Assembly (NCBI GenBank): GCA_963774265.1 | Contig: CAVZDU010000003.1 | Span: forward strand, 416,001-480,000 | DNA from: an uncultured Chloroflexia bacterium | GTDB taxonomy: Bacteria > Chloroflexota > Anaerolineae > CG2-30-64-16 | DNA length: 64,000 nt | Reading direction: 5' to 3' | Part shown: in pieces, positions 30,498 through 48,377 of the stretch | Position numbering within the stretch: position 1 is the first letter of the stretch | Layout of the letters: every line of letters starts with the position of its first letter | The notes under the pieces: generated by a model | Told to the model about the DNA's origin: nothing | The model's database searches: none | Seen by the model: only the letters and a program-made list of their open reading frames with translations | Translations under genes and position numbers: made by a program

Positions 30498-31001
30498 ATG
30501 CCTGGGATCGACATCCAAAGTCTCCAACGACGTATAGAAGCTATCGTCAACGCGCAAGGTCAGGTGCGGCTGGTATACCTCTTCGGATCGCAAGTCGGCG
30601 GAGAGATCGGGCCGCTCAGCGATGTTGACCTGGGTGTGCTGCTTGCACGCGACGCGCCGGTGGCGCGTATCCGCGCGCAATTGGCGCATCTCTTGTCCGC
30701 GGCCTTGGGTGGGAATTCCGTCGATTTGATCATCCTCAACCAGGCGCCGATCGAGTTGGCCTACGCCGTCATTGCGCAAGGCAAGATCATCTATCAGCGT
30801 GATCGCGCAGAACGGGTTGAGTATGAGGCAGATGTCATGAGCCGTTACGGGGATTATCTGCCGTTCTTGCGGGCACAGCGCCAGGATATCCTGGAAGGAG
30901 CGGGAGATGAACGTCGAGTTCAGCGGTATCGAGAGGCGCTTGGACGAACTCAGCGAGCGCTTGGCACGCCTGGCGCCCCTGTGCGACCGACCACAAGCTG
31001 A
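30498..31001 (+). CDS. mntA: MNT antitoxin (type VII TA adenylyltransferase)
   Basis: LFGS-x10-DVD motif; VDLIILN; overlaps the HEPN gene. Confidence 0.9.
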   Translation: MPGIDIQSLQRRIEAIVNAQGQVRLVYLFGSQVGGEIGPLSDVDLGVLLARDAPVARIRAQLAHLLSAALGGNSVDLIILNQAPIELAYAVIAQGKIIYQRDRAERVEYEADVMSRYGDYLPFLRAQRQDILEGAGDERRVQRYREALGRTQRALGTPGAPVRPTTS

Positions 31002-31332
31002 TTTTAGCAGCGACCCCTACTTGCGAGATATCGTCGAGCGCAATCTTGAAGTTGCTGCGCAATGCTGCATCGATATTTGTCACCGCATCATCGCGCTCGA
31101 AGGCGCCCAGAAGCCGCGCGACTACCACGAGGCGATCTTGCGCATGGGAGAGCTGGGTGTCCTGCCGCCTGACTTCGCCGAGCAGCTTGCCCCAATCGCC
31201 GGGTTTCGCAATATCCTGATTCACGAGTATCTGGCTGTGGACTGGGATGAAGTGTATGATAACCTGACGAATCTGGATGACCTCTCTCGTTTTGCGGCGC
31301 TTATCCGCGCCTGGTTGGCCAGCCAGGGGTAG
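30907..31332 (+). CDS. hepT: HEPN (DUF86) RNase toxin
   Basis: FRNILIHEY = RX4HXY; ERNLEV..CCIDI. Confidence 0.9.
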   Translation: MNVEFSGIERRLDELSERLARLAPLCDRPQADFSSDPYLRDIVERNLEVAAQCCIDICHRIIALEGAQKPRDYHEAILRMGELGVLPPDFAEQLAPIAGFRNILIHEYLAVDWDEVYDNLTNLDDLSRFAALIRAWLASQG

Positions 31333-32420: not shown

Positions 32421-33499
32421 ATGTCGTACAAGCTCATCATCCCGTTGTTCCTGATCGTCATGCTGCTGGCCGCCTGCGGCGGCGCAGCCCCGACCACCGC
32501 TCCTGCGGCACCTGCTGCCGCTACCGCCGCCCCTGCTGCTGCAGCCGCAAAGCCGGCCGCTGGGGAACCCGATTATCGTCGGCCTGATCACCAAGACCGA
32601 GACCAACCCGTTCTTCGTCAAGATGAAGGAAGGCGCTCAGGCCAAGGCCGACGAATTGGGCGTCAAGTTGATGACCGGCGCCGGCGCCAAAGACGGCGAC
32701 AACGAAGGCCAGGTGACGGCGCTCGAGAACATGGTCAACGCCGGGGCCAAGGGCATCCTCATCACCCCCAGCGACACCAAGGCGATCGTGCCGAGCATCC
32801 AGAAAGCGCGCGATAAGGGCGTGGTCGTGATCGCGCTGGACACCGCGACCGAGCCGCAGAGCGCGGTTGACGCCCTGTTCGCGACCAACAACTTCAACGC
32901 CGGCCTGCTGATCGGCCAGTGGGCCAAGGCGGCCATGGGCGGCAAGAAGCCCGTCATCGCCACGCTCGATCTGCAGCCCGGCATCACCGTCGGCGCGCAG
33001 CGCCACAACGGGTTCCTGCAGGGCTATCGGCCTGGCGCACGGCGGACCCGAACTCGTCCGACCTCGTCACCTCCGCCGAAGTGGTTTGCTGCCAGGACAC
33101 CCACGGCGACCAGACCGAAGGCCAGACCGCCATGGAGAACTGCCTGAGCAAGAACCCTGACATCAACCTGGTTTACACCATCAACGAACCGGCTGCCTTC
33201 GGCGCTTACCAGGCCATCAAGGCCGCGGGCAAGGAGAAAGACATCACCATCGTGTCCGTCGACGGCGGCTGCCGCGGCGTGCAGGGGTCGTCGATGGCCA
33301 GATTGCGGCCACTTCGCAACAGTACCCGCTGAAGATGGCCTCGATGGGCGTGGAAGCACTGGTCAAGTTTGCCCAGACCGGCGAGAAGCCGTCCGGCTAC
33401 ACCGATACCGGCGTCACGCTCATCACTGACAAGCCGCAGGCGGGCGTGGACAGCAAGGACTCCAAGTATGGCGCGGCGAACTGCTGGGGCGAGAAATAG
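32421..33499 (+). CDS. Sugar ABC transporter substrate-binding lipoprotein (FrcB-like; frameshifted)
   Basis: Lipobox LAAC; [19 protein letters not shown]; VYTINEPAA; SVDGGC. Confidence 0.88.
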
Positions 33500-33511
33500 C
33501 CTAAGCTGACT

Positions 33512-33550
33512 GAGTGGCGGTGAGGCTCACCCTCACCGCCACTCTCTTTT
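33512..33550 (+). terminator. Intra-operon stem-loop after the SBP gene
   Basis: GAGTGGCGGTGAGG-5 nt-CCTCACCGCCACTC followed by TCTTTT. Confidence 0.75.
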
Positions 33551-33564
33551 CAGGAGGATTACCC

Positions 33565-34560
33565 ATGAGCGCAGTCGTGAGTAAGGTCACCAAGCGTCGT
33601 TCCGGCGTTCTGAGACGTGTTGCGGGGATCGCCGATCATGGGCCCCCTTGCGGCGCTCGTGCTGGCGATTATCTTCTTTGCCACGCAAAGCGACAAGTTC
33701 CTGACTGGCGCCAATTTCTCCTTGATCATGCAGCAGGTGATGGTGGTCGGCACCCTGGCCATCGGGCAAACGTTGGTCATCTTGACCGGCGGCATCGATC
33801 TCTCCAACGGCATGATCATGGCGCTGTCCTCGGTGCTCATGACCGGCCTCGCCGTACGATCCGGGCGTCAATCCGATTCTGGCGATCTTGGTGGGCATCT
33901 GGCGTGTGTGTCGCTTTCGGTCTGTTGAACGGCGCGCTGATCACGGCCATCGGGCTGCCCGCCTTTCATCGTGACCCTGGGTACGCTACAACATTGTCTA
34001 TGCCCTGGTCCGTATCTACACCACGTCGACGATCACCAACCTGCCCGCCAGTCCTGTTGTTCTTCGGGAACACCTTCACGATCGGCGGCACCGAGATTCA
34101 CCTATGGCTCGGTGTTGATGCTCATCCTGTACGCGATCACCTGGTTCGTCTTGCGCTCGACGCCGGCCGGACGCTCCGTCTACGCCGTGGGCGATAACCC
34201 GGAGGCCGCCCGCCTGGCCGGCATCAACACCAACCGCGTGCTGATCGGGGTCTACACGATCGCCGCCTTGACTTACGGCATCGCCGGTCTGCTGCTGGTG
34301 TCCCGCACGGGCGTGGGTGACCCGCAGGCCGGCGCAAACCGGCAACCTGGACAGCATCACGGCCGTGGTGCTGGGCGGCACCAGCCTGTTGGGCGGTCGA
34401 GGCCAAATCATGGGGACGCTGATCGGCGCGCTCATCGTCGGGGTGTTCCGCAACGGCCTGCAACTGATGGGCGTCGAGTCGATCTACCAGGTGCTGATCA
34501 CCGGTATCCTGGTGATCGCTCGCGGTGTCCGTTGACTATCTCTCCCACCGGGGCAAGTAG
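33565..34560 (+). CDS. Sugar ABC permease (RbsC/FrcC-like; frameshifted)
   Basis: GQTLVILTGGIDLS; GRSVYAVGDNPEAARLAGI; [16 protein letters not shown]. Confidence 0.88.
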
Positions 34561-34581
34561 CCAGACAGGAGGCATGTCGCC

Positions 34582-36096
34582 ATGAATGCATCCCCAGGTA
34601 AAGTCCTGCTGGAAATGAAGGGCATCGGCAAAACCTTCCCCGGCGTCAAGGCGTTGGAAGGCGTCAATCTCACCGTCCGGGAAGGCCAGGTCCATGCTCT
34701 GTTGGGTGAGAACGGGGCCGGCAAGTCGACCCTGATCAAGATTCTGTCCGGCGCCTATACGAAGGACGAAGGCCAGATCTTCTTCGAAGGGCAAGCCGGT
34801 TGAGATTCGCGGGCCCGCACGATGCCCAGGCGTTGGGTATCTCGACGATCTATCAGGAGTTCAACCTGGCCCGCGATCTGACCGTCGCCGAGAATATCTT
34901 TCTGGGCCACCTGCCCAGAAAAGGCGTCGACGGTCGATTGGGCTACGGTCAAGGCACGCTCGCAGGAGATCCTGGACACTCTGGGCGTCACCTTTTCCGT
35001 GGATGCGCCTGACCGCAACGCTTTCGGTGGCTGAACAGCAGTTGGTCGAGATTGCCAAATCGCTGAACCGCAAGACGCGCATCCTCATCATGGACGAGCC
35101 GTCGGCCGTGCTGGGCGAAAAAGACCTCGAAAAGCTGTTTCAGGTGGTCCGCTCGCTCCAGGCGCAGGGCATTGGCATCATCTACATCTCCCACCGTCTG
35201 AAGGAGATCTTCGAGCTGGCCGATGAGGTCACGGTCCTCAAAGATGGGCGCTATGTTGACACCCGGAGCGTCTCTGAAGTGACGATGGACGATCTGGTCA
35301 AGCTGATGATCGGGCGCGACCTGAAGGATGTCTATCCCAAGCGGAGCCTGACGCCCAGCGATGTCCTGCTGGAGGTCAACAATGTCTCCCAGACCAAGCT
35401 CGTGCACGATATTTCCTTCCAACTGCACGCCGGGCGAGATCGTCGGCTTTGCCGGCATCGTCGGCTCCGGGCGGACCGAGCTGGCGCGGGCCATCTTCGG
35501 CGCAGACCCATTCACCGGCGAGATGCGCATCTCCGGGCAAGCCGTATAAGCCGCACTCCCCGGCGGATGCGATCCAGCCACGGGGTGGCGCTGGTGACCG
35601 AGGATCGCAAGGCCCAGGGACTCTTCCTCAAGTTGAACGTCTGGCCATCAACACCACGATCTCGGGCTTGAAGCAATTGTGCCGGTTGGGCGTGATCCAA
35701 CTGGGCCAAGGAACTCAGCCTGGTCAAGCAGATGATCAAGGACTTGAGCATCAAGACGCCAGGCCCCAACTTTCATGGTGGTCAACATGAGCGGCGGCAA
35801 CCAGCAGAAGGTCGTCCTGGCCCGCTGGCTCAGCATCGGCACGCGCATCTTCATCCTGGACGAACCGACCCGCGGCATCGACGTGGGCAGCAAGTCTGAG
35901 ATCTACCAGATCATGGATGGATCTGACCAAGAAGGGCGTGGGGATCATCATGATCTCATCGGAGCTGCCCGAAGTCCTGGGCATGAGCGATCGCATCATG
36001 GTCATGCGCCAGGGCACGATCGTGAAGGAGTTGTCGCGAGCCGAGGCCAGTGAAGAGGCGATCATGAAGTACGCGGTGGGATCCGAGGCCGCTTGA
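34582..36096 (+). CDS. Sugar ABC ATP-binding protein (RbsA-like, two ATPase domains; frameshifted)
   Basis: [34 protein letters not shown]. Confidence 0.9.
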
Positions 36097-36124
36097 TCTT
36101 GGCCGCAACAAGGAGGCGCTAACC

Positions 36125-36797
36125 ATGGCAGTGATTACGATTTCCAGAGAGCTGGGCAGTGGCGGCTTTGACATCGCCCAGCAGGTGGCGAAGAGTCTGG
36201 GCTATGAGTTCGTGGACAAGCGCACGATCCGATGGCATCTTCCGGCAGTACGGGCTGACCAAATTCGACGATTTGTACAACTCGGCGCCGAGCATCCTGG
36301 ACCTCATCAATGCGGACAATCTGCTGATCGTCTCGATGTTGAACGAGATTCTGGAGGCGCTGGCCAAACGCGGCAACGTCGTGATTCTGGGCCGGGCCGG
36401 CTTCGCTGTCCTGGGCGAGTATGCGGATGTGCTGAATGTGCACATCCAGGCTCCCTTCTCGGAGCGGGTGCAGCGGGTGATGGCCAGGGAAGGCCTGACC
36501 GATCTCGCAGCCAGCCGAGGAGCGGGTGCGACGAGGACGACAACGTGCACCGCAAATATGTCCAGAGGTTCTATAACAAGCAGTGGGATGATCCGTCCAA
36601 CTTCGATCTGGTCCTCGACTACGGGCTCGCTGTCCAGCGGACGAGGCCGTGAAACAGATCGTGGAAGCGGCCCGAGCCTTGACCAAAAGGCGCAGGCAAG
36701 GATGCGGTCACGACCGCATCGACTTCAGGTCGATCCTGTTCTGGCGGATGCCGTCGCCAAAACGATGGCCGGTCGGATAGCACAGGCGCCTGCGTAG
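36125..36797 (+). CDS. Cytidylate kinase-like family protein (frameshifted)
   Basis: ITISRELGSGG, VILGR, AP...RV.R, WDDPSNFDL. Confidence 0.82.
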
Positions 36798-37029
36798 GCG
36801 CGTGGACGGAGTAGGGTGAGGTTCTTCACGGTCCGCGGGCCGGATGGCGAAAAACTCGAATCATGGCCTCTGTGAGCCGAACCGACCCGCGGCCTTGACG
36901 TGAGCTGTTAGTCGGGGTCGTGCTTTCTCGACGTTATCAGAATCTGCAGTGGGCAGGCTGGAGGCCTCGGCCGGTCCTGTTCACTGCAGCATCCGGTCTC
37001 TTTGGAAAAAGCAGGGGGTACGCGAGCCA

Positions 37030-38487
37030 ATGATCCATTGCACGCTGGGCATCGACATGGGTACGTCGGGCGTTAAAGCCGCACTCCTTGACCTGGACAC
37101 GTTCAAGCTGATCACTTTGGCCATGCAGGGCTACGACAACGCGCCCGAACAATCCTCGGAGATGCTGTGGCAAGCGACCGCTGCCACCGTTCGCGAGGCC
37201 GTCACCGGGATCGATCCGCGTGCCATCCGGGGCATCAGCTTCTCGGGCCAGATGCACGGGACCGTCATGTACGATGCACAGGGCGAGGTCATCGAGCCAA
37301 TCATCAATTGGCAAGACAAGCGCTGCGATATTCCCCTCGGGCGGTACGGTAACCGGACCACGATCGAAGTGATGATGGCCCTCCTGGCCGGCGCCGAGTT
37401 TGACGACCTGGGCATCGACCTCCTGCCGAGCGGCTACCTCAGCGCAACGCTGTTCTATATCAAGGAAAACGACCCTGCGCTATTCGAGCGGATTTGCCAG
37501 GCCGTTCTGCCCGGGGATTTCATCCGCGGGCAGCTGCTGGGCGCCTCCGATCGCGCCTCCGGTCGCGCCACCGATCCGACCAACGCGTCTGGGACCGGCC
37601 TTTTCAACACCCGGCTCAATCGGTGGCACGGGAGCATCATCGCGAAACTCGGGCTGCCCCGGGAAATCCTGCCGGCCGTCCACGATAGCGCCGAAGTGGC
37701 GGGCGTGCTCCCTTCGGCCGTTGCGGAGGAGTTGAACCTGGCGCCGGGGACGCCCGTGGTCTACGGCGGCGGCGACAACCAGATGTCGCTGCTGGGCAAC
37801 GGGCTCGTCTCGAGCCGTTCGCCGGCCCTGATCAATATCGGCACCGGCGCGCAGGTGTCGCAGGTCACCTCCCAGTATGCCAGGAAGCCGGGCGTCGACA
37901 CTCGCAGCTATTTCAGCCGGTCATACGCTTTCGTCGGCCCGAGCCTGGGCGGAGGACGGAGTTACGCGCATCTGCACAGGGCGCTGCAGAGCCGCGAGGG
38001 GCGCGACATCGGATACCAGGAGATGGATGAGCTGGCTTCCAGAGTGCCAGTTGGCGCAGACGGGCTGGTGTTTCAAGTGACCGTACGTGGCGCGGCCGGC
38101 GGTCCCGAAGGCTTCGTCGGACATACGGAGTTGCAGGATGTGGGCCACCAGACCCGGGCGGTCATGGAGGGCGTGCTGCTGGATCTCTACCGGCTGCGTC
38201 CCCCCACATTGGCAGACGGGCCCGGGTTCATGGTGGGCGCGGGGAAAGGGTTGCAGAACAGCCGGGTCTGGGCGCAGATGGCCGCGGACGTGTTTGACTG
38301 CCCGATCAAGATCACCAACTTTGAAAATGCTGTTTGGGGCGCAGCAGTGATCGCGGCGGTGGGCGCCGGCGCGATCACTGACGTACGCGACGCGACTGCG
38401 ACGATCGAGTACAGCCGGGAGCTCTTGCCTGACCCGGCCAGTGCGGCGCAGTACCGAGACCTCATCGCTGAAAGGAAGGGTCCCTGA
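37030..38487 (+). CDS. FGGY carbohydrate kinase (sedoheptulokinase/xylulokinase-like)
   Basis: GIDMGTS, SGQMHG, NWQD.R, GGDNQ, NIGTGAQVS. Confidence 0.85.
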   Translation: MIHCTLGIDMGTSGVKAALLDLDTFKLITLAMQGYDNAPEQSSEMLWQATAATVREAVTGIDPRAIRGISFSGQMHGTVMYDAQGEVIEPIINWQDKRCDIPLGRYGNRTTIEVMMALLAGAEFDDLGIDLLPSGYLSATLFYIKENDPALFERICQAVLPGDFIRGQLLGASDRASGRATDPTNASGTGLFNTRLNRWHGSIIAKLGLPREILPAVHDSAEVAGVLPSAVAEELNLAPGTPVVYGGGDNQMSLLGNGLVSSRSPALINIGTGAQVSQVTSQYARKPGVDTRSYFSRSYAFVGPSLGGGRSYAHLHRALQSREGRDIGYQEMDELASRVPVGADGLVFQVTVRGAAGGPEGFVGHTELQDVGHQTRAVMEGVLLDLYRLRPPTLADGPGFMVGAGKGLQNSRVWAQMAADVFDCPIKITNFENAVWGAAVIAAVGAGAITDVRDATATIEYSRELLPDPASAAQYRDLIAERKGP

Positions 38488-38488
38488 G

Positions 38489-39472
38489 ATGTTCGATGTG
38501 ATTGCCTGCGGCGAGCTCTTGATCGATTTCGTCTCGACTGAGTCTGGCGTAACGCTGGGCCAGGCGCCGGCATTCCAGAAAGCTCCCGGTGGCGCGCCTG
38601 CCAACGTCGCGGTGGGCGTCGCGCGGCTGGGATATCGGGCTGGCTTCCTCGGGCAGGTGGGCGATGACGACTTCGGGCACTTCCTGGCCGACACGATCGC
38701 GGTGGCCGGAGTGGACGTCGGTGGCTTGCGCTTTTCGCCCGAGGCCCGCACCGCACTGGCGTTCGTGTCCCTGCGCAACGACGGCGAGCGCAGCTTCATG
38801 TTCTACCGCCACCCAAGCGCGGACATGTTGTGGCGGCCTGAAGATGTGGACCGGGAGTACGTGGCGGGCACGCGCATCTTCCATCACGGCTCCATCTCGC
38901 TGATCAACGAGCCGAGCCGGAGCGCCACGCTGGCGGCGGTCGAGTATGCCCGCGAGGGTGGCGCGCTGATCTCGTACGATCCGAATCTGCGGCTGGCACT
39001 GTGGCCTTCGCCCGACGCGGCGCGGGCGGGGATCCTGGCGGCATGGCCGTTCGCCGACCTGATCAAGGTCAGCGAAGAGGAGCTGGAATTCCTCACCGGA
39101 GACCTGGACATCGAGCGCGCCGCGCGGTCTCTCTGGTCGCAGCGACTGCTGCTGTTGGTGGTGACGCGCGGGCCGGCCGGGTGCATGTACTTCACGCCGG
39201 AGGGCAGCGGTGTGGTGCCCGGCTTTGCGGTGCATCCAGTCGATACCACGGGCGCAGGAGATGGTTTCGTCGCCGGGCTCCTGGCCGGGCTCCTGGACTG
39301 CGGGCTGTCGCGGGATGCCGCCGACCTGGAGCGCGCCCTGCGTCTCGGGAACGCCATGGGCGCGCTGGCCACCACCCAAAAGGGCGCCATCCCGGCGCTG
39401 CCCACTCGCCAGGCGGTCGAGGCTTTTCTGCGGGAGGCAGCGCACGGGCAGGGGGATCAATGGGCAGATTGA
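38489..39472 (+). CDS. PfkB family carbohydrate kinase (fructokinase-like)
   Basis: GELLIDF, PGGAPANVA, YDPNLR, DTTGAGDGF. Confidence 0.9.
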   Translation: MFDVIACGELLIDFVSTESGVTLGQAPAFQKAPGGAPANVAVGVARLGYRAGFLGQVGDDDFGHFLADTIAVAGVDVGGLRFSPEARTALAFVSLRNDGERSFMFYRHPSADMLWRPEDVDREYVAGTRIFHHGSISLINEPSRSATLAAVEYAREGGALISYDPNLRLALWPSPDAARAGILAAWPFADLIKVSEEELEFLTGDLDIERAARSLWSQRLLLLVVTRGPAGCMYFTPEGSGVVPGFAVHPVDTTGAGDGFVAGLLAGLLDCGLSRDAADLERALRLGNAMGALATTQKGAIPALPTRQAVEAFLREAAHGQGDQWAD

Positions 39473-40543
39473 CCATCGCGGATGTTGCCAGAGAAGCAGG
39501 TGTCTCGACAGCGACGGTGTCGAACGTCATCAACAACACCCGCTTCGTGAGCGACGAAACTCGCCAGAAGGTCAACGACGCAATCGAAGCTCTGGGTTTT
39601 GTGCCGAGCGCGGTGGCGCGGAGCCTGGTTACCAACATCTCGCAGATCGCCGGCGTCATCGTCTCCGATATCACCAACCCCTTTTTTCCGGCCATGGTGC
39701 GGGGGATCGAAGATCAGACCCTCCCCTATCGTTACAGCATGGTCCTGGGCAACACCGATGAGGATCCGCTGCGCGAAGAGGAGCTTGTCCGTCTGATGAC
39801 GAGGCAGCGCGTCGACGGCCTCATCATCGCACCCACGGGTGTGCGTTGCGCACCGCTCCTGGCGCTGGCGGAATCGGGCGTTCCGATCGTCCAGCTCGAC
39901 CGCACCAGCCCAGGCTTGACCGCACCGCTGGTCGGCGTCAACAACGAAGAGGGCGCCTATCAGGCCGTGAGCTACCTGATCGGCCTGGGGCACCGACGGA
40001 TTGCCTGTCTGTTTGGCATCGAGGCAATCAGCACACAAGGTGAACGGCTCAAAGGCTGGAGGCGAGCCTTGCAGGAGGCGGATCTCCCGATCGACGAGGA
40101 CCTGATCGTGCGGGCAGATCCGCGTCTTCTACGGCACCTTGCCGGATGCCGCGGGTGCGATAGCTCCGGTCAGGCCTGCGCTGGCGCACGAGAAGCTGCC
40201 CGGTGTAGATGAGGCGCTGGGCGGTCTTTGGGAAGGTCCCCGGCCTCCCTCGGCAGTGTTCGCGCTGACGAATCAATTAGCCCTTAGCACGTTGTACGCC
40301 CTCAAGGCGCGTGGGCTAAGATTCCCGGAGGACATCTCGCTCGTCAGTTTCGATGACCCCGATTGGGCGCCGCTCTTTAGTCCCCCCCTGACTACTGTGC
40401 GCCAGCCCGCGTACCAACTCGGCGAGGCCGCCGCAGGCCTGTTGATGAGCCTGATCAACCACGAGCCGGCCGAGCCTCCTCCTCCCTTGCCGGTTGTCTT
40501 GATGAAAAGGGCGTCCAGCGGTCCACCGCCTTCGGGCGGGTGA
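39460..40543 (+). CDS. LacI family transcriptional regulator (frameshift near 40130)
   Basis: TIADVAREAGVSTATVSNVIN; NPFF; PEDISLVSFDD..PPLTTVRQP. Confidence 0.9.
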
Positions 40544-40665
40544 AGTCACTGCGCCGAGGATGTCGTCTGCGCAGCGTCTCATCGCTTGGGCCCCCGCTCC
40601 AGTGAGTGAGCCGGCCGAGATCCAAGGTCGCAACCGGCCTTCTTGCGGCCCACAAGTCGACCTCC

Positions 40666-40693
40666 GACGTACTTCTGCGGGTAGAAGTACGTC
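40666..40693. terminator. Hairpin between convergent lacI and primase genes
   Basis: GACGTACTTCT-GCGGGT-AGAAGTACGTC (perfect 11-bp stem). Confidence 0.55.
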
Positions 40694-40758
40694 AAGCGCG
40701 TGGCGGAAGCGGCGCCATGATGGGTTGACGAACAGGAGAATTTACAAATCGCCTGCGC

Positions 40759-42949
40759 TCAATCATCGTCGCCGTCCACCTCCCGCACAAAGGACAACTC
40801 CCAGGGTTCCAGGCCTGCATAATCGTCCGCCTGCCCCGGGTTACCCCACGGGTCCCCCGCGTCCGGCGGCTCGGACTGGTGCACTGGTGCACCTGATTTC
40901 GGGGGGATAGACACACACACACTTCCCCTGGCCAGGTGGTCGGGATGCGGCAGCACCGGCCGGTCCGCGGGCATCGGGTCGCCGATGGCATAGCGCGCGG
41001 GCTGCCTCTCCCGCGTCTCAAGATTGACCAGGTACCCGTCATGGATGGCCCGCAGCGCGCGGCGGCCGGCCGCCGACTTGTCCAGCCCCAGGGCATTGGC
41101 CAGTTGGGCCCGGCTCACCTCGGCCGGCTTGTTCGCGGCCCTGGCCTGCCCGATCAGCTGCGCCACGGCTTCAACCGTTTCCCGCGTGGTCGCGTTCACC
41201 GCGGCCTGGACCGTGTCGCCGATCACGTCCGCGACCGTCTCATAGACCGCGCGGTAGTCCTCCGGCGTTGCGATGATCCGGCCGCCCTCGTCGCGGCCGC
41301 GCTGCGCCTGGTGCAGAATCGCGTGGCTGCGGATGAGATTCAGCACCGCCCCGAAATCACGGCGGAGGCGGACGGCCCGCACATCGGCCAGGCTGGTCAG
41401 GCGATCGGCGAAGGGAATGACCACCTCGCGGCAGCCGGCCAGCTCGAGCCAGGTCTGCAGCCCGTGCCAGGCTGAGAAGTCCGGCCGCGGAGGCTCGCGG
41501 CCCTTCGCGCGATCGGCCAGTGCCTGCAGAATCCCCGCGGTCTGTGTTGGGTCGTCGCGCACCGTCACCGAGAACATGCGGGTTTCGTTTTCAGGGTGCA
41601 GGCTCGCGCCGGTGGTCGTGACGATCAGTCCCGTCGGCCCGGCGCGCTCGATCAGTTTCGACTTAAGCCCATCCGCAGTCTTCTCCACGGTCTCATAGCG
41701 GATGCAACCCTCTGAAAGCAGGGTGCGCATCAGATAGGTGCCAAAGTCGGAGGTCAGGCCCGCGGCCTCGTACAGCACCAGGTGGCGATGGGCCAACGGC
41801 TCGTTGCTGTAGGCTAACGACCGCTCAGACATGGACGACAGTGCATAGAACGCGTTGGGCGGGAAGGCCCGGAGCACGGTCTCGACCGTGAAGGACTTGC
41901 CGCCCGACGACGGCCCCTTGACGACGACGGAGACCGGCCGCTTCAGGAGGCGCGAGGTGACGGCCAGGTAGAGCAGCCGCGCGGTGCGTTCCTCGCCCAC
42001 CAGCCCCAGGCTGTTGCACAGCCCGGTCAACTCGGCCAGGATATCGGGGGAACGGAGCAGCGCGGCAGCCTGTTGTTTGGCCTGGCCGGCCTCCGCATGC
42101 AGGGCTTCGGCCCGGAGCTCGCGCCACGGCCGGGCAGAGGCCCTGAGCCGGTCCACCAGCGCGGGCACATCATCGCCGGCCAGGTGGCAGTCGCTGATGT
42201 CTTTGCGGCCCTCGGGCGGGGTGATGACAAGGCAATCGGGGAGCGACTCGCCCACCTTCTCAGCGAAGGCCGCGCCGCCCCCGTCGCTTTCCCGCCAGGC
42301 ATACACCGTCAGTCCGTCCAGATAGCGCGCCCACTCCGGTTTCCAGGTGGCCGCGCCGGGGATGCCCAGCGCCGGGATGCCGTGAAGCCAGAAGGTCTGG
42401 GCGTCACTCTCCCCCTCGCACAGGATAACATACGGGGCGCTCCGATCCAGCCGCCAGAGCCCATACGGTTGGAATCTTGGCGCCCCTGCGCCACCTGAAG
42501 CGGTTCTCGCCGGTCAGCGCCACGCGCAACCGGACGCCGGTCTCGGTCCCGGCCGCGTCATAGTAGGGCATTTTCAGGTAGGGCTTGCCCAGGCTGTGGG
42601 CGGTCTGCAGGCCGAGCGCATCCAGAAAGTCCAGGGGCAGCCCCTTGACCCGGGCATAGTTCTCCAGGGTAGGGGGAAGGTATGTGTGTGTAGTACCCCC
42701 GCGTTCCAGTTGCACCAGTGCACCAGTCAAGTGCGCGGCCAGGTCACGGAGACCGCCCGACTTCCCGCAGGCGAAGCACTTGTAGCCCGCGGCCGAAACC
42801 GAGAAGTTCTGCGCGTGGGTGTCATGGTGGAATGGGCACAGCGCCCAATACTCGCCCTTCCGGTCCGGGAAGCGGCCGTCCGGCGACCCGCCCCGGTCCA
42901 ACTTCGGCAGGATCACCTCAAGCAGGCTATCGGAGTTCACCGGCCCCAT
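40759..42949 (-). CDS. Phage/plasmid-type primase-helicase: CHC2 zinc finger + TOPRIM + P-loop ATPase + winged-helix tail (frameshift near 42470)
   Basis: CPFH..C..C (CPFHHD...CFAC); LCEGESD...GIPG and ESD.GG; GPSSGGKS; LYEA; C-terminal LANALGLDKS. Confidence 0.85.
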
Positions 42950-43143
42950 CCTCCGGGTCCGGTCGCCCGCGGTAGCTGGCGGTCTCGGGCCGCTCGAACC
43001 AGGCGCCGGCCTCCACCGCGGCCTTGCGCAGAACGACCCGGATCGCGTCGGATTGCGTCCGTTCGAGCTTGCGCGCCGAGCGCGTCGATCATGCGCCGTT
43101 CTTCTTCCGAGCACTTGAACGTGAACGAATCTACTCGCCTCAT
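42927..43143 (-). CDS. Small ribbon-helix-helix (CopG/MobC-like) DNA-binding protein (one indel)
   Basis: Corrected translation MRRVDSFTFKCSEEERRMIDALARKLERTQSDAIRVVLR...; overlaps the primase start. Confidence 0.6.
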
Positions 43144-43231
43144 AGAACCCCCTTCGCTGCGATGCTAAAGGGAGTCTACTCCGGTCGAAACGGCATCATT
43201 CCGAACTTCGATTCGAACTTCGGATCGACTT

Positions 43232-44020
43232 TCAGTCTTCGGTGTCGTCCCGTAGATGTTCAGGCCACAACTCGGTAAACTCGGCCCAGGAGATCGGCTT
43301 GCGCGTTTGCCAGAGATGGGCGACACGCTTGGGAATCCACACGGTGACGGTTTCGTAGGTCAGGCCTTCGTCCTGCCAGGCAGTTGAGAATGGGAGCCTC
43401 ACGCCGGCCTGGCGTTTCTCCCACATCGCACGCATCTTGATCCGCGAGTCACGGTAGGGCCCGCGCCTCCGCGTTACCTCTTCCGAGCGCAAGGCGGCCG
43501 GCACCTGATCGGAAGCCACGTCCCCCTCCGCATCGCCGAACGCCAGATCCAGGCTTTCCTTCACGCGTTCCTTGCGTTCCGTTTCGTAGGTCTGCCAGAC
43601 CGGCCCGATCGCGGGATAGTGTGCCTGCAACTCCTTCAGCAGGCTCACGAAAATGTTCAGCACGGGCAGAAGCTGCTCGGAGCAGCTCGCCCTCACGTAA
43701 GTCTCGCGACCCAGTGCGGCGAACCGGAACCGCATCACCGGCCCCAGGTGCTCTATCTTTGGCTCATATCTCTCAGTCACGACCTCCGGCGCCCAGTCCG
43801 CCGGGATGGAAACAGTCGTTCTCCGGACTGCCGCCACCACAATCTCGACACGCACAACCGGCACAGCGCGGTGGCTCACCTTGGGCGCTGACAGGAACAA
43901 CTCAACCTGATAGTCTTCCCTGTGACCGCCCACGGTCCGGGGCGGCAGCGCCTCCATGAACCAGGCTTCCACGGCGTAAACGTCGTCCGGAATCGTGAAG
44001 TCGACCACCGTTGCTGCCAT
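43232..44020 (-). CDS. Hypothetical protein (262 aa)
   Basis: Clean ORF with GGAGG RBS and TTGCGC-17-TATAAT promoter; no family recognised. Confidence 0.7.
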   Translation of the reverse strand: MAATVVDFTIPDDVYAVEAWFMEALPPRTVGGHREDYQVELFLSAPKVSHRAVPVVRVEIVVAAVRRTTVSIPADWAPEVVTERYEPKIEHLGPVMRFRFAALGRETYVRASCSEQLLPVLNIFVSLLKELQAHYPAIGPVWQTYETERKERVKESLDLAFGDAEGDVASDQVPAALRSEEVTRRRGPYRDSRIKMRAMWEKRQAGVRLPFSTAWQDEGLTYETVTVWIPKRVAHLWQTRKPISWAEFTELWPEHLRDDTED

Positions 44021-44052
44021 CGCTTTCCTCCCGCCGTGAGTTACGACAGGGC

Positions 44053-44147
44053 ATTATAGAATATGCGTTCGCTCGGCGCAAGCAGGGCCTCCGGATTTGA
44101 CATCCGGCCATCTGTTCTGTTATACTTCGCAGAAGAACAAAGATTCT
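44053..44147. promoter_or_regulatory. Divergent promoters, each overlapped by a GAAC-N4-ATTC (LexA/Cheo-like) box
   Basis: Left: TTGCGC-17-TATAAT (44081-44053) with box at 44058-44071. Right: TTGACA-18-TATACT with TG extension (44097-44126) and box at 44134-44147. Confidence 0.6.
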
Positions 44148-44169
44148 ATTTCATCGAAGGAGACATCGC

Positions 44170-44583
44170 ATGGCAATGTCAAGCACGACTGTTTGGACCA
44201 GGGGGTTCAGCGAGAACCCCGCGGGCGCGCCCCTCAGGCTGAAGTCGATCATTGAAATGCTGGACCATATCGGCGACGAATGGGTGACCCTGCCCGGCGG
44301 CGCGCCTGCCGGGGACGCCGGCACAGGCAACCCCGCCGGGGGCGTCGACCAGGGTCGCGCCATGACCCGCCGGGAGCTCCTGGCACGCGTGCTGTGGACG
44401 CGCGCGATCATGGACGCCGACGGTGCGGCCACCAGGCTCATCATCGAGTACCTCGACGGCAAGCCGGATGAGTGGGGAGAAACAACCGGCGAGGCGCCAA
44501 GGTTCTGCGCCGACGACTACGCGCTGGCCGAGGCGCTGCTGCGGGAGGGCTCAGGCAGTGACGGCTCCGACTTCTCCCGATAA
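44170..44583 (+). CDS. Putative terminase small subunit (DUF5681-like)
   Basis: WTRGFSENPAGAP resembles FKPGQSGNPxGRP; LARVLW..A...D..A.RLIIEYLDGKP; overlaps terL. Confidence 0.6.
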   Translation: MAMSSTTVWTRGFSENPAGAPLRLKSIIEMLDHIGDEWVTLPGGAPAGDAGTGNPAGGVDQGRAMTRRELLARVLWTRAIMDADGAATRLIIEYLDGKPDEWGETTGEAPRFCADDYALAEALLREGSGSDGSDFSR

Positions 44584-46172
44584 GCGCCGGCGGCGCCACG
44601 TGCCGGGCGCGGGCGCAGCGGTCCTGCGGACTTCGCAAGTCTCACAGGGATCGTTCCCAATGCCCGGCGCGTCCCCGGATGGCGGCTCGTATGGGGATCA
44701 GGCCCTCTGGCTGGCCTGCTCGCGGTCGCCCGCCTGCTTCCTCGACCGCTTCGGCCATGTCTACGATCCGCTGGCGCGCGGCTGGACGCGCTTCCGCCTC
44801 TGGCCGGCCCAGGTGCGGGCCCTGGAGCAGCTCGCGTCCCACCGCCTGGCCGTCGTCCTCAAGGCGCGCCAGCTCGGCATGTCGTGGCTGACGGTCGGTT
44901 TTGGGCTCTGGCAGATGCTCTTCCGCCCCGAAGCCACCGTGCTGCTCTTCTCGCAGCGCGACGATGAGGCGGTCCACCTGTTGACCTTCCGGCTGCGCGG
45001 CATGTACGACCGCTTGCCGCCCCTCTTCCAGGCGCGCACGGTCGTGCGCGACAACGCCCACGAGCTCCGCCTGTCCAACGGCTCGGCCGCGCTGGCGTTC
45101 CCGACCACCGGCGGCCGCTCCTACACCGCCTCGCTGGCGATCGTGGATGAGGCCGATCACACCGACGACCTCGACGGGCTGCTCAATGCGGTCAAGCCGA
45201 CCATCGACGCCGGCGGCCGGCTGGTGCTCCTGTCCACCGTCGACAAGTCCCGGCCCGAGTCGCCGCTCAAGCGGATCTACCGGGCCGCCGTGGCCGGCGA
45301 GAATGACTATACGCCGATCTTCCTGCCCTGGCACGCGCACCCCGGCCGCAGCCCCGCCTGGTACGCCGAGCAGGCGCGCGACATCCAGGCACGCACCGGC
45401 GGGCTGGATGACCTGCACCAGGAGTACCCGGCCACCGACCTGGAAGCGCTGGCCCCGCGCGCTGGACAAGTTCTTCCCGGCAGAATGGCTGAACCGATGC
45501 TACGAGCCATTGAAGATTGAGGGAAATCTGCAATCTTCGATTTTCAATCTTCAATCACTCACCGTCCACGTGCCGCCGCAGCCCGACCACCACTACGTGA
45601 TCGGCGCGGACCCGGCGGAGGGCAACCCGCAGAGCGATGAGAGCGCCGCGGTGGTGCTGGACTATGCCACCGGCGAGCAGGTGGCGACGATGGGGCTGCG
45701 CTGCGATCCGGAGATGTTCGCCGTACACCTGGACCGCCTGGCCGCGGCCTATGCAAGCCTCGCCGAGCACGGCGGCGAAGCCGAAATCATGGTCGAGCGT
45801 AACAACCACGGCCATGCCGTGATCCTTGCGCTGCGCCAGCTCGGCGCACTGCTGCTGCGCGGGTTGGATGGCGAACGCGGCTGGACCACCACCGGCTCCA
45901 GCAAACACCAGCTGTTTGATTGGGCGGCGAAGGACATCCGCGAAGGCGGGCTGAAACTGCACGATGAGACCACCTACTGGCAGCTCACCTCGATCGACGG
46001 CGCCACGCTGGCTGCGCCGCCGGGGCAACACGACGACCGGGCGATGGCGTGCGTGCTGGCGCTCGAAGCCCTGCGCAGGGCGGGCGGACCGAACCGGGTC
46101 CTGTCGCTCATGATCCCGGGGGTGGACCCGATAGAGGTGGCCGACCGAACCCCGTGGGGAGAGAAGTGGTAG
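44558..46172 (+). CDS. terL: Terminase large subunit (frameshift near 45460)
   Basis: LWPAQ (Q motif), KARQLGMSW (Walker A), IVDEA (Walker B), IGADPAEG, VERNNHG, HDDRAMA (RNase H-like nuclease). Confidence 0.88.
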
Positions 46173-46316
46173 AGGGCGTTCTCAGTGCTGGGATAGTGTC
46201 ACATTTGTGATTTTATTGTAACTATGATAGGCTCTGCCGCGCAAAGGAGAATCGTCGGCGCGACGGCGGCTCGTGCAACCGCATAGCGCGTGTGTTACGC
46301 AGAAGGAGCGCTTGCG

Positions 46317-48377
46317 ATGTCATTGACGCGACGTGCCATTGGCTTCCGGGCCGTGGCTGCGGTGCTGGTTGTCGCGGCCCTGTGTGTCACCGCCTGCTCC
46401 GCGCCCGCCACTCCTGTGCCATCCACACCAACACCGCGCGACTACTGGCCAACGGCCGGCTGGCAAACCGCGCCCGCCGGCCAGCACGGCTTGGACGAGG
46501 CGAAACTGGCGGCGCTCGAGCCGGAGATTGCTGCGGAATTGCCGTTCCTCAACAGTCTGCTGATCGTCCGTGACGGGCGTCTTGTGTACGAAACTTACTC
46601 AAACGGTCAGGACGCTGCGTCGCTGAACGAAATCCGGTCGGTGACCAAGAGCGTCACGTCGATGCTGGCCGGTATCGCGCAGGCACGCGGGGAGTTGGGT
46701 GGGCCGGACGTATCTTTGTCTCAGGTTGCGCCGACGCTTTTTGCCGGCTCCCAACACGCCGATAAGCAGAAGCTGACCCTACGCGAACTGCTCATGATGC
46801 GCTCTGGCGTGCAGTGGGATGACATCACCGCGGAGAAGTTGATCGCCGCCAACGGGGTACCTGCCTACCTGCAGCAGGACATTGTCGGTGTTGCCTTGGA
46901 TCAGCCCATGGTCCATAAGCCCGGAACCACCTGGAACTACAGCACGCTCGACACGCAGCTGGCCGCTGCGCTGCTCGAAAGCGCGACCGGACGGTCCTTG
47001 AAGGAGTATGCAGCCGAACGCCTTTTCGCACCGTTGGGCATCAGCACCTTTGACTGGCAAAGCGACCGTGTCGGCCATACGGTGGGCGGCGGCCAACTGC
47101 GCCTCACGGCGCGCGACATGGCAAAACTGGGCTACCTGTATCTGAACCGCGGCACGTGGGATGGGCGGCAGCTCGTCCCGCCCGACTGGGTCCGGCAGAC
47201 CACCACGCCCCAGGCGACCGGCGTCTATTCTGCGACCGGCCAGACGATACCGATCGATTGGTACGGGATGGGTTGGTGGACCTGGAAACCGCAGCTTTTC
47301 GGCGGCCAGCGCGCGATTGCCGCGCGGGGCTATGGCGGGCAAGGCATCATCTTGCTCCCGGATCAGGACATGATCATTGTAACGACCGCCGATTCGGTCG
47401 TGGCGCCCGAGCAAGCGAGTGCCCAGGACTCCCGAGTCTACGACCTGGTCAAAGATCGTGTGATACCGGCAATTGCCGACCTGCGTCCGCCCGATCCGTT
47501 CTGGGCGGTTCCGGCCTCGGCGTCGCCCCCGCACCCAGCTCTCTACCTGGCCGGCGCGGACGGCCGCGGCCAGCGCAGCATTTTGCAGGACCCGGAGTAC
47601 GGTTTCTGGGGTCCGTCATGGTCGCCTGACGGCAAGCAGATCGTGTTTTCCCGCATCATCCCTGCCGTGGAAATGCCGGGCAACCCTGTCGCCGAGCTGT
47701 TTATCGCCGACGCCGACGGCAAGAACGTGCGGCAGTTGACGAAGAGCGGTCGCAACAACTACCTGGTGGCCTGGGCGCCAGATGGACGCGCGCTGGCCTA
47801 CCTTTCCGGCAGTGGCGACGCAGCGGAAATCTACGCGAAGGATATCGAGAGCGGCCCGGAAACCCGGCTGACAACCAACTCAGCCCAGGAATACGGCATC
47901 ACCTGGTCGCCGGATGGGCAGAAGATCGCGTTCGGGACGAAGCGCGACGGTGATTGGGGCATCTACACGATGAATTCCGACGGCACGGGCCAGCAGCCTC
48001 TGCCCACTCCCGCCGCCGGCAATTCGCCCGCTTGGTCGCCGGACGGCCGCCACATTGCCTTTATGTCGGAGCGTAACGGCGATGCTGAGATATTCGTGAT
48101 GGACGCCGACGGTGGCAACCAGCGCCTCGTGCTCGGGGGTGATGGGTGGGATTATCTGCCGGCCTGGTCACCGGATGGCAGGCGCATTGCATTCTCGTCG
48201 ACGCGCGGCGGCGACGCCGCAGTCTACGTTGCGGCGGCCGATGGCAGCGGCGTTGCCAGGGTCAGCAGTCGTGACCTCGTCGCAGAATTCGAATCCTGGT
48301 CACCTGATGCGACACGGCTGGTATTTCACGCGACTCCGAAACCGAAGGGCGGCCTTTTCGGATTGTTCGGCCGCTGA
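46317..48377 (+). CDS. Lipoprotein: class C beta-lactamase-like serine hydrolase fused to a TolB/PD40 beta-propeller
   Basis: Lipobox VTAC; SVTK, YST, ARGYGGQ; seven W(S/A)PD repeats. Confidence 0.88.
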   Translation: MSLTRRAIGFRAVAAVLVVAALCVTACSAPATPVPSTPTPRDYWPTAGWQTAPAGQHGLDEAKLAALEPEIAAELPFLNSLLIVRDGRLVYETYSNGQDAASLNEIRSVTKSVTSMLAGIAQARGELGGPDVSLSQVAPTLFAGSQHADKQKLTLRELLMMRSGVQWDDITAEKLIAANGVPAYLQQDIVGVALDQPMVHKPGTTWNYSTLDTQLAAALLESATGRSLKEYAAERLFAPLGISTFDWQSDRVGHTVGGGQLRLTARDMAKLGYLYLNRGTWDGRQLVPPDWVRQTTTPQATGVYSATGQTIPIDWYGMGWWTWKPQLFGGQRAIAARGYGGQGIILLPDQDMIIVTTADSVVAPEQASAQDSRVYDLVKDRVIPAIADLRPPDPFWAVPASASPPHPALYLAGADGRGQRSILQDPEYGFWGPSWSPDGKQIVFSRIIPAVEMPGNPVAELFIADADGKNVRQLTKSGRNNYLVAWAPDGRALAYLSGSGDAAEIYAKDIESGPETRLTTNSAQEYGITWSPDGQKIAFGTKRDGDWGIYTMNSDGTGQQPLPTPAAGNSPAWSPDGRHIAFMSERNGDAEIFVMDADGGNQRLVLGGDGWDYLPAWSPDGRRIAFSSTRGGDAAVYVAAADGSGVARVSSRDLVAEFESWSPDATRLVFHATPKPKGGLFGLFGR

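Follow-up and report, generated by a model that had tools for sequence, protein, structure and literature searches.

Staphylococcus aureus pathogenicity islands (SaPIs), which are roughly 15 kb in size, carry a pri-rep initiator and an iteron origin, and the primase-helicase of satellite P4 acts on two separated clusters of short repeats, one of them in or near its own gene (alpha ori/crr octamers). For packaging, the satellites described in the parts of the literature at hand either borrow the large terminase of a helper, as SaPIs, P4, minimalist chromosomal islands inducible by phages (PICMIs) and integrative mobile elements encapsidated in virions (VEIMEs) do, or bring a whole head, as do phage-inducible chromosomal islands that form capsids (cf-PICIs) and MulchRoom/MiniFlayer. 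According to the sections consulted, VEIMEs encode small terminases and “motor-like ATPases” and are expected to take the large terminase from the helper (PMC9618062), EPIPs carry terS and head genes (PMC12822802), and cf-PICIs and MulchRoom/MiniFlayer carry terS and terL with portal and capsid genes (PMC10690885). A full-text literature search returned nothing pertinent on elements with an own, orphan or stand-alone terminase (the supplements of two surveys, PMC10085698 and PMC9618062, lay outside it and may list exceptions) and no description of phage satellites in Chloroflexota. Here we report a module of about 5.4-5.6 kb at coordinates 40759-46172 of the window, i.e. the whole stretch of 64,000 nucleotides analysed from an uncultured Chloroflexia bacterium (G000:C3:416001-480000; the genome comprises 5.5 Mb in 10 contigs and is 84% complete), which joins a putative replicon of its own to a complete terminase. 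We give about an even chance to the reading that it belongs to a small family of integrase-less, satellite-like elements of Anaerolineae-type Chloroflexota, seen here through their genes, which would use borrowed procapsids.

The primase-helicase of the module and its two separated repeat clusters may be analogous to those of P4-like satellites. P4, which encodes an integrase and capsid-size functions, relies on the helper terminase acting at cos sites, as given in the part of PMC10690885 consulted, and the module has no PHROG match to such genes; defence hotspots are also listed for P4 in the part of PMC9122126 at hand. Like the module, cf-PICIs and the Streptomyces satellites MulchRoom/MiniFlayer bring both terminase subunits; these satellites hence package only themselves (PMC10690885, same part). 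In addition, they have genes for portal, major capsid protein, protease or scaffold, and head-tail adaptors, and cf-PICIs and MulchRoom one for an integrase, whereas the window element shares terS and terL with cf-PICIs and has no portal, capsid, protease, connector or integrase gene. Chromosomal islands inducible by phages (PICIs) and SaPIs resemble the module as chromosomal islands with no structural genes whose terS redirects packaging (for the terS role, the same part of PMC10690885). However, SaPIs use the helper TerL and have an integrase and att sites, while the module measures 5.6 kb and has its own TerL and neither integrase nor att repeat. PICMIs of Vibrionaceae, as far as the consulted part of PMC10803314 describes them, contain int, alpA, a primase and three genes of no stated function, no capsid-remodelling genes, and act as a defence hotspot. 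They are very small and gene-poor like the module, but encode an integrase and AlpA and lack terS and every other packaging gene, the reverse of the module with its terminase and no integrase. Of the mandatory PICMI genes listed there (integrase, AlpA, primase, Fis), the module has only a primase, of another type, and a Pfam scan of its five open reading frames (ORFs) found neither AlpA nor Fis.

Replication and packaging genes of the module

The first-pass annotation had described five genes in two divergent arms between host genes, and this arrangement was found again: the leftward arm consists of primase-helicase, small ORF and ORF262, and the rightward arm of a terS-like gene and terL. The features of the module are:

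40759..42949, minus strand: primase-helicase replication initiator with CHC2 zinc finger, TOPRIM, P-loop ATPase and a C-terminal winged-helix-like part
40874..40928, unstranded: iteron arm 1, putative origin element, CTGGTGCA twice and then TTTCGGGGGGATAGAC, in the 3' part of the primase gene
42674..42728, unstranded: iteron arm 2, in inverted orientation to arm 1, within the linker that follows the zinc finger
42927..43143, minus strand: small ORF, about 71 aa if read through, overlapping the primase start
43232..44020, minus strand: ORF262, opening the leftward arm; alpha+beta domain at the N-terminus, small helical domain at the C-terminus
44021..44169, unstranded: divergent control region, 149 bp between the arms, the slot of restriction genes in two relatives
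44170..44583, plus strand: terS-like gene of the DUF5681 type
44660..46172, plus strand: terL, ATPase and RNase H-like nuclease, from a predicted start codon

The predicted N-terminal packaging ATPase, with Walker A/B and coupling motif, and C-terminal RNase H-like nuclease, with acidic catalytic residues, of the terL product are both features of T4 gp17-like large terminases. PHROG terL families match both halves of the protein (N half, E 1.5e-15), a profile of relatives (A4) matches T4 gp17 residues 95-320 (E 4.7e-15), and the terL-family profile matches the RB49 nuclease domain 3c6a (E 1e-5). In an alignment of 12 sequences the ATPase motifs KARQLGMS, IVDEAD and LLSTVD and the nuclease motifs IGADPAEG, VERNNHGH and HDDRA are all kept, so that the catalytic motifs of terL, like those of the primase described below, are intact as first noted. 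The terS-like gene has a weak DUF5681 match (E 0.003), which exceeds the Pfam cut-off at the orthologous position in two relatives (L017 and L032), and it always lies directly upstream of terL in relatives; its structure model (pLDDT 56) was too poor for fold testing. No PADLOC model matches terS, terL or ORF262, and the core proteins are not those of a PADLOC defence system.

The absence of capsid, portal and integrase genes from the module, also claimed at first, is borne out by three kinds of search. No Pfam or PHROG head-gene match was obtained in the window, portal (PF04860, PF05133) and HK97 capsid (PF05065) domains were not found anywhere in the 84%-complete genome, and the portal and capsid of related clusters had no tblastn match there. 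An integrase, as in PICIs and SaPIs, was not found either: no PF00589 or PF00239 match lies within 25 kb of the module, the nearest tyrosine-recombinase match is a fragment 26 kb off, and the window contig has no serine recombinase. As described before, terL is followed by an unrelated lipoprotein gene (46290-48377, beta-lactamase/PD40) and not by a portal gene.

The CHC2 finger of the primase-helicase corresponds to PF01807 (E 1e-6), with PHROG primase matches as well. Along its entire length the protein aligns colinearly with a 716-aa paralog, itself intact, on contig C2 of the same genome; in this alignment its TOPRIM motif (ILCEGESD) and its Walker A motif (VKGPSSGGKS) are kept. A weak DnaG-like similarity to the PADLOC DRT accessory model was also seen (E 7e-6 and 2.7e-7). 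The two iteron arms in the gene are 55 nt each, share an 18-nt exact core and form an inverted repeat 1745 nt apart; each is a tandem octamer, CTGGTGCA twice followed by TTTCGGGGGGATAGAC, and both fall in poorly conserved protein linkers. Four paralogs of the primase were found in the genome, three of which carry analogous repeat pairs with octamers of their own:

L002, contig C6: AGTCGTGC three times and TTTCGGGGGGGGTAGAC; a 59-nt pair, 90% complementary, 1757 nt apart, in the same relative places as in the window
L001, contig C2: ACATGTGC twice; at the gene's 3' end, 147 nt apart
L004, contig C10: TGTAACAC twice

No repeat pair was found in the fourth paralog (L003, contig C7). Since the octamers are specific to each paralog and change in step with the protein lineage, they follow the pattern expected of origin iterons, and the module thus appears to have the own replication initiator and the putative iteron origin that are typical of PICIs and SaPIs.

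Several other loci of the genome bear on these replication genes. An orphan inverted pair of window-type iterons (G000:C1:188469-188525 and 189344-189392; 90-94% identical, about 0.9 kb apart) has no primase gene between or beside its arms and may be an origin-only element or a deletion derivative. The intact 716-aa paralog (58% identity) lies in an island of lower GC at positions 6500-14800 of L001 (G000:C2:445000-464999), together with a tyrosine integrase, small ORFs and an HTH_Tnp_1_2 ORF; this island is a candidate for a satellite of the classical integrase-bearing, PICI/P4-like type in the same genome. An ORF with a TubC_N docking domain comes next after each of the paralogs of L002 (8776-11461) and L003 (8424-11096). 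Both paralogs are surrounded by restriction-modification and PD-(D/E)XK genes, and the stretch scanned showed no integrase.

The two other genes of the leftward arm have few relatives. The small ORF has no Pfam or PHROG match, and its second piece has no PDB relative; the gene called ribbon-helix-helix (RHH) in the first-pass annotation therefore exists, and its RHH-like character is our own tentative reading of the residues, as no Pfam, PHROG or PDB match backs the label. ORF262 matches nothing in Pfam, PHROG, NCBIfam or PADLOC, and its family is rare, with 33 matches among 1.84 billion representatives. Within the order the whole protein was found only in G000 and G039, where the homolog (G039:C79) has the same position relative to terS-terL as in the window, and its C-terminal domain also occurs in a 217-aa ORF of G007. 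A sample of 400 other genomes of the phylum yielded no ORF262, pattern scans with its alignments gave no relative on genome or metagenome contigs, and a word-index search returned the query alone. The AlphaFold2 model (pLDDT 86) has only generic alpha+beta fold matches; assigning a function through the KA1, RnlA NRD or SRPBCC folds was rejected, as these matches were generic too (Z at most 8.1, Foldseek E at least 0.008). Between the arms, a promoter scan found a single near-consensus promoter, TTGACA-18-TATACT (11/12 match, 44097-44126, plus strand), upstream of terS. The near-consensus promoters first proposed thus hold for the rightward arm, while the leftward one, with its putative perfect -10 element, comes from our reading of the letters.

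Three further observations concern the terminase genes. An AT-richer stretch at 45510-45569, in a hypervariable linker of terL (protein IEGNLQSSIFNLQS), matches sites of 30-50 nt with 90-97% identity in many places of several genomes of the genus and is a short dispersed repeat. A lone DUF5681 terS-like ORF (L006 9968-10450; G000:C1:820467-820949), 38% identical to the window terS, adjoins an MFS transporter gene and has no neighbouring terL. A phage-like locus on contig C5 (L005; G000:C5:115000-134999) contains a large serine recombinase, a Terminase_6N/6C gene split in two frames, DUF669, an 822-aa DUF3854 (TOPRIM-type) protein and a tyrosine integrase.

Portal-less relatives and head clusters

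Relatives of terL were counted at E <=1e-20 among 37 genomes of the order and were present in 15, with minimal modules in about six. We compared 20 loci, the window included, by marker proteins and Pfam/PHROG. In 11 of the 20, terS-terL is followed by portal, a small ORF, a protease/major-capsid fusion, an SU10-like adaptor and two more ORFs. Another five, all independent, end with terL and pass straight into 8-17 kb of host genes, without a portal, capsid or integrase gene:

Window (G000:C3): terL followed by a beta-lactamase/PD40 lipoprotein gene
L016 (G002:C5): terL followed by an oxidoreductase gene
L017 (G007:C12): terL followed by GNAT and MazG genes
L029 (G039:C79): terL followed by a CDGSH protein gene
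L036 (G003:C520): terL followed by thioesterase and PFK genes

L028 (G048:C147) was not counted as independent because it is the same DNA as L016, host flanks included (99.85% over 9.3 kb), although the two metagenome-assembled genomes (MAGs) are assigned to different genera; this identity is probably a binning or dereplication artefact and not a transfer. Two loci that end at terL (L034, L037) were likewise left out. Tyrosine or serine recombinases were not found on the contigs of L016, L017, L029 and L036, nor on that of L033, and the insertion sites differ in all minimal modules. Hairpins lie 3' of terL in all relatives, with no conservation of sequence. The recurrence of a layout lacking structural genes, which the first-pass annotation had put forward for checking, was thus found for the portal-less, terL-terminal end, though the replication genes differ.

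The 11 loci with head genes (L032, L018-L023, L025, L030, L031, L035) form a head-only cluster that is syntenic within genera. In L032 (9738-18451, G047:C5) it spans 8.7 kb, i.e. terS, terL, portal, a 268-aa ORF, the protease/major-capsid fusion, the SU10-like adaptor and two ORFs, with no integrase, replication or tail genes, and has housekeeping genes as its immediate neighbours (on one side rplI and a pseudouridine synthase, on the other an Na/Ca exchanger). These clusters of the same bacterial family are like the module in their homologous terS-terL (49-57% identity to the terL of G002), the lack of an integrase and the host genes directly at their flanks; they have portal, protease/capsid fusion and SU10-like adaptor and no replication genes, whereas the module is the reverse. 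A related portal occurs elsewhere in the genomes of three minimal modules (G003, G007, G039).

In an IQ-TREE phylogeny of 20 terLs, the seven minimal rows (window, L016 with its duplicate L028, L017, L029, L036 and L033) form one clade with 100/100 support, and this clade holds with support 99 in a FastTree phylogeny of 160 rows that included IMG/VR and other phyla. It is nested among the terLs of terS-terL-portal-protease/capsid clusters. The rows nearest to the window terL (L033 and L029) come from two other genera, and the tree of the clade is not congruent with the host genera. Within the clade dN/dS is 0.16-0.42 for terL, 0.16-0.30 for its ATPase half and 0.28-0.39 for terS, and terL is under purifying selection. 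Clade membership and dN/dS together indicate that the closest homologs do not lie in full prophages and that the terL-terminal layout was kept through deep divergence. The outcome that would have spoken for a decayed prophage, with the closest homologs always in full prophages with a portal after terL and with real indels, was not observed: the closest terLs lie in equally minimal modules, and one indel is absent from short-read contigs.

Around this shared terminase the modules vary. The replication arm of the window has the CHC2-TOPRIM primase-helicase, and that of L016 and L017 a fused HTH_36/DnaC-like initiator; in L029 the ORF262 homolog is succeeded by a PrimPol-like N-terminus, and L036 has a winged-helix/XRE pair. 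An ORF262-family gene or its C-terminal domain recurs among the minimal modules. The slot upstream of terS is occupied by a GmrSD-like gene and a type IIG restriction-modification gene in L029 and by a type III restriction enzyme gene in L033. Such a mosaic structure is typical of mobile elements.

A wider survey gave approximate figures, since head genes were called through BLAST clusters that were each named from two PHROG-scanned representatives. Among 80 IMG/VR loci, 53 had at least 3 kb downstream of terL, 49 of them with head genes within 5 kb and four with none; among 79 loci on genome contigs, 59 had at least 3 kb downstream, with head genes within 5 kb in 39 and none in 20, five of which repeat loci of the 20-locus set. 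Short IMG/VR contigs (4-6 kb) with related terLs were considered as complete mini-genomes and rejected, because they have no terminal repeats and are hence fragments. The survey also met two other portal-less groups. In Planctomycetota-type MAGs (L051, L060, L042, L179, L173 and others) a ParB_N-N6/N4 methylase fusion and a 210-aa ORF precede terL; large serine recombinases or DUF2924 lie near the members of this terL clade, many of which are short IMG/VR fragments, and in those whose DNA extends downstream no head gene was recognised. In the other group (L161 3146-6614, L168 9932-13430, also L156 and L159) a solo terL on a long branch of the terL tree, with no terS, head or replication genes recognised, stands between a glycosyltransferase/GtrA block and a dynamin-like GTPase matching PADLOC LeoA/LeoBC, syntenic in four Caldilineaceae/Anaerolineales-type MAGs.

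Flanks and frameshifts

The DNA on either side of the module is as follows:

39463-40543: LacI gene, host gene of the left flank
40544..40758, unstranded: left junction, from the LacI stop to the primase stop
46173..46289, unstranded: right junction, non-coding, from terL to the lipoprotein gene
46290-48377: beta-lactamase/PD40 lipoprotein gene, host gene of the right flank

Synteny with a same-genus genome breaks off at 40528, within the last part of LacI, and because it resumes nowhere on the contig, no empty site was found and no boundary could be fixed. No tRNA and no Rfam match were found in the window. Further to the left, an ORF at 30841-31329 encodes a HepT-like ribonuclease (PF01934, E 1e-29), which probably acts as toxin in a HepT/MntA pair.

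Exactly one frameshift is present in each of three module genes:

about 42478-42490: primase, between FRWRRGAKI and PYGLWRLD
43078: small ORF, one extra base
about 45452-45460: terL, between EALAPR and ALDKFFP, in a GC-dinucleotide run

Logan contigs from three soil-metagenome runs of one study were aligned to the module (shares 0.07-0.09). Two contigs of run X1, 99% alike, are one base shorter precisely at 43078, and the frame is thereby restored. Two joints each seen in a single contig (40920 to 42627 and 44880 to 46032; sides 34 and 25) were too weak to interpret. Outside the module, a Pfam census of 50 window ORFs gave three clearly split host genes (cytidylate-kinase-like, LacI and ABC ATPase) and about five probable ones in about 58 kb, six or seven of which fall at 32-40.5 kb and so adjoin the module on its left. 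In this stretch (32455-40543), a frameshift-split run of periplasmic binding protein, ABC ATPase, cytidylate-kinase-like gene and LacI, the indel density is far above that of the rest of the window, which suggests a poorly polished part of the assembly. It is reasonable to read the module indels as part of the same error pattern, and for one of the three this is proven; the early claim that they match window-wide errors thus agrees with the indel at 43078 and with the split host genes, though their density exceeds the window mean.

Competing explanations and possible mode of spread

As portal-less islands recur in related genomes, the module resembles a new phage-dependent hitch-hiker rather than a dead prophage. 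Several results weigh against reading it as a satellite-like element with borrowed procapsids. No helper with portal and capsid was identified in the 84%-complete window genome, and with the queries used no related portal was found in G002 (89% complete), G042 (98% complete) or G000, so a resident helper would not be required. An empty site was not found in the same-genus synteny search, nor did the flanks of L016 and L017 have adjacent counterparts in G000, and no att-like direct repeat common to both junctions was found (the longest common word, 8 nt, was equalled in 230 of 300 shuffles); with no integrase, no above-chance flank repeat and no empty site, mobility is suggested solely by patchiness and mosaicism. 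The dS of the elements is 0.26-1.1, and that of terL (0.4-0.8) is near that of three usable host genes (0.68-1.15, most host matches being paralogs), so old vertical descent with rearrangement could also account for them. L033 (G042) stands outside the portal-less count because its DNA stops 59 nt after terL. The small terminase is identified, putatively, by position and DUF family; the short-read contigs span only 43078 and not the frameshift sites of primase or terL; and three frameshifts in 5.4 kb is denser than the window mean and similar to the adjoining 8 kb. Induction, packaging, the helper and the roles of ORF262 and the small ORF are all deduced from genes.

Of the three readings first offered, we favour the satellite with its own terminase; that of a trimmed prophage has weakened, and that of a domesticated amplification or transfer module still stands. 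A decaying remnant of a larger element, such as a head cluster or a cf-PICI-like island, which lost portal, capsid and integrase and whose frameshifts are real, would explain the nesting of the minimal clade among terLs of terS-terL-portal-capsid clusters, the three frameshifts and the missing integrase. We consider it unlikely, though worth weighing, as the same cut after terL is common to a deep monophyletic clade that is under purifying selection with all motifs kept and whose members gained different replication arms and cargo, and as one frameshift is absent from short-read contigs while nearby host genes are split likewise. The module could also be a resident, non-excising lateral-transfer system, similar to gene transfer agents or lateral transduction, in which the initiator over-replicates the locus and the terminase starts headful packaging in situ into outside capsids, moving adjacent host DNA. 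The union of origin-like iterons and a full terminase at one locus fits this, as do the related integrase-less head-only clusters in the same bacterial family, the absence of integrase and att repeats in the window and of recombinases on the contigs of the four other portal-less loci and L033. We nevertheless think it quite unlikely: the distribution is patchy (terL in 15 of 37 genomes, minimal modules in about six, each at a different site), which, with the varying replication arms and the restriction cargo, suits a selfish element better than a host-maintained system, and capsid genes were not found in the window genome. In the same way, features of gene transfer agents are wanting, with no head genes in the genome, differing sites and a tree that does not follow host genera.

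Restriction genes in or beside L029, L033 and L017, and primase paralogs of the same genome that adjoin restriction-modification genes, raise the idea of a packaging-interference defence island, whose decoy terminase would compete for or cut invading phage DNA or portal and which would not spread in capsids; known satellites defend by redirecting packaging, as the consulted parts of PMC10690885 and PMC9618062 describe. This is very unlikely in our view, given that no PADLOC model matches terS, terL or ORF262, that pure defence has no need of a private replicon with iterons, and that a conserved nuclease and ATPase with a cognate TerS fit real packaging. There is also a slim chance that the module is an integrase-free satellite that never excises, whose iteron origin would fire in situ, whose TerS-TerL would package in situ into the procapsids of a relative, and whose transfer would be obligate lateral transduction with re-entry by homologous recombination with flanking host genes. 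The procapsid donor may then be a tail-less, integrase-less head-only island, making the element a parasite of another dependent element; this variant would account for every copy lying at a synteny break with no att site.

For the favoured satellite-like element with borrowed procapsids, we propose the following course. A signal, probably helper infection or induction, would de-repress the divergent promoters, for which the small RHH-like protein and ORF262 are candidate regulators. The primase-helicase would bind the two inverted iteron clusters in its own gene and amplify the element, whose DNA would be recognised by its TerS. The element TerL would dock on procapsids of a helper with a related terminase, so that element DNA would be packaged instead of helper DNA. 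Natural candidates for the helper are phages or head-only clusters with related terminases, since related terminases imply compatible portals. Because there is no integrase, entry into the chromosome would proceed by helper or host recombination, or the element would never be excised.

The missing integrase raises the question of how such elements enter the chromosome, and two simple parts, the lineage-specific iterons and the cognate TerS-TerL pair, are open to bench tests. If this reading is true, the module would represent a third satellite strategy, with a replicon and a full packaging motor only, that takes full control of DNA selection and translocation and builds nothing, and it would extend phage satellites to the Chloroflexota.

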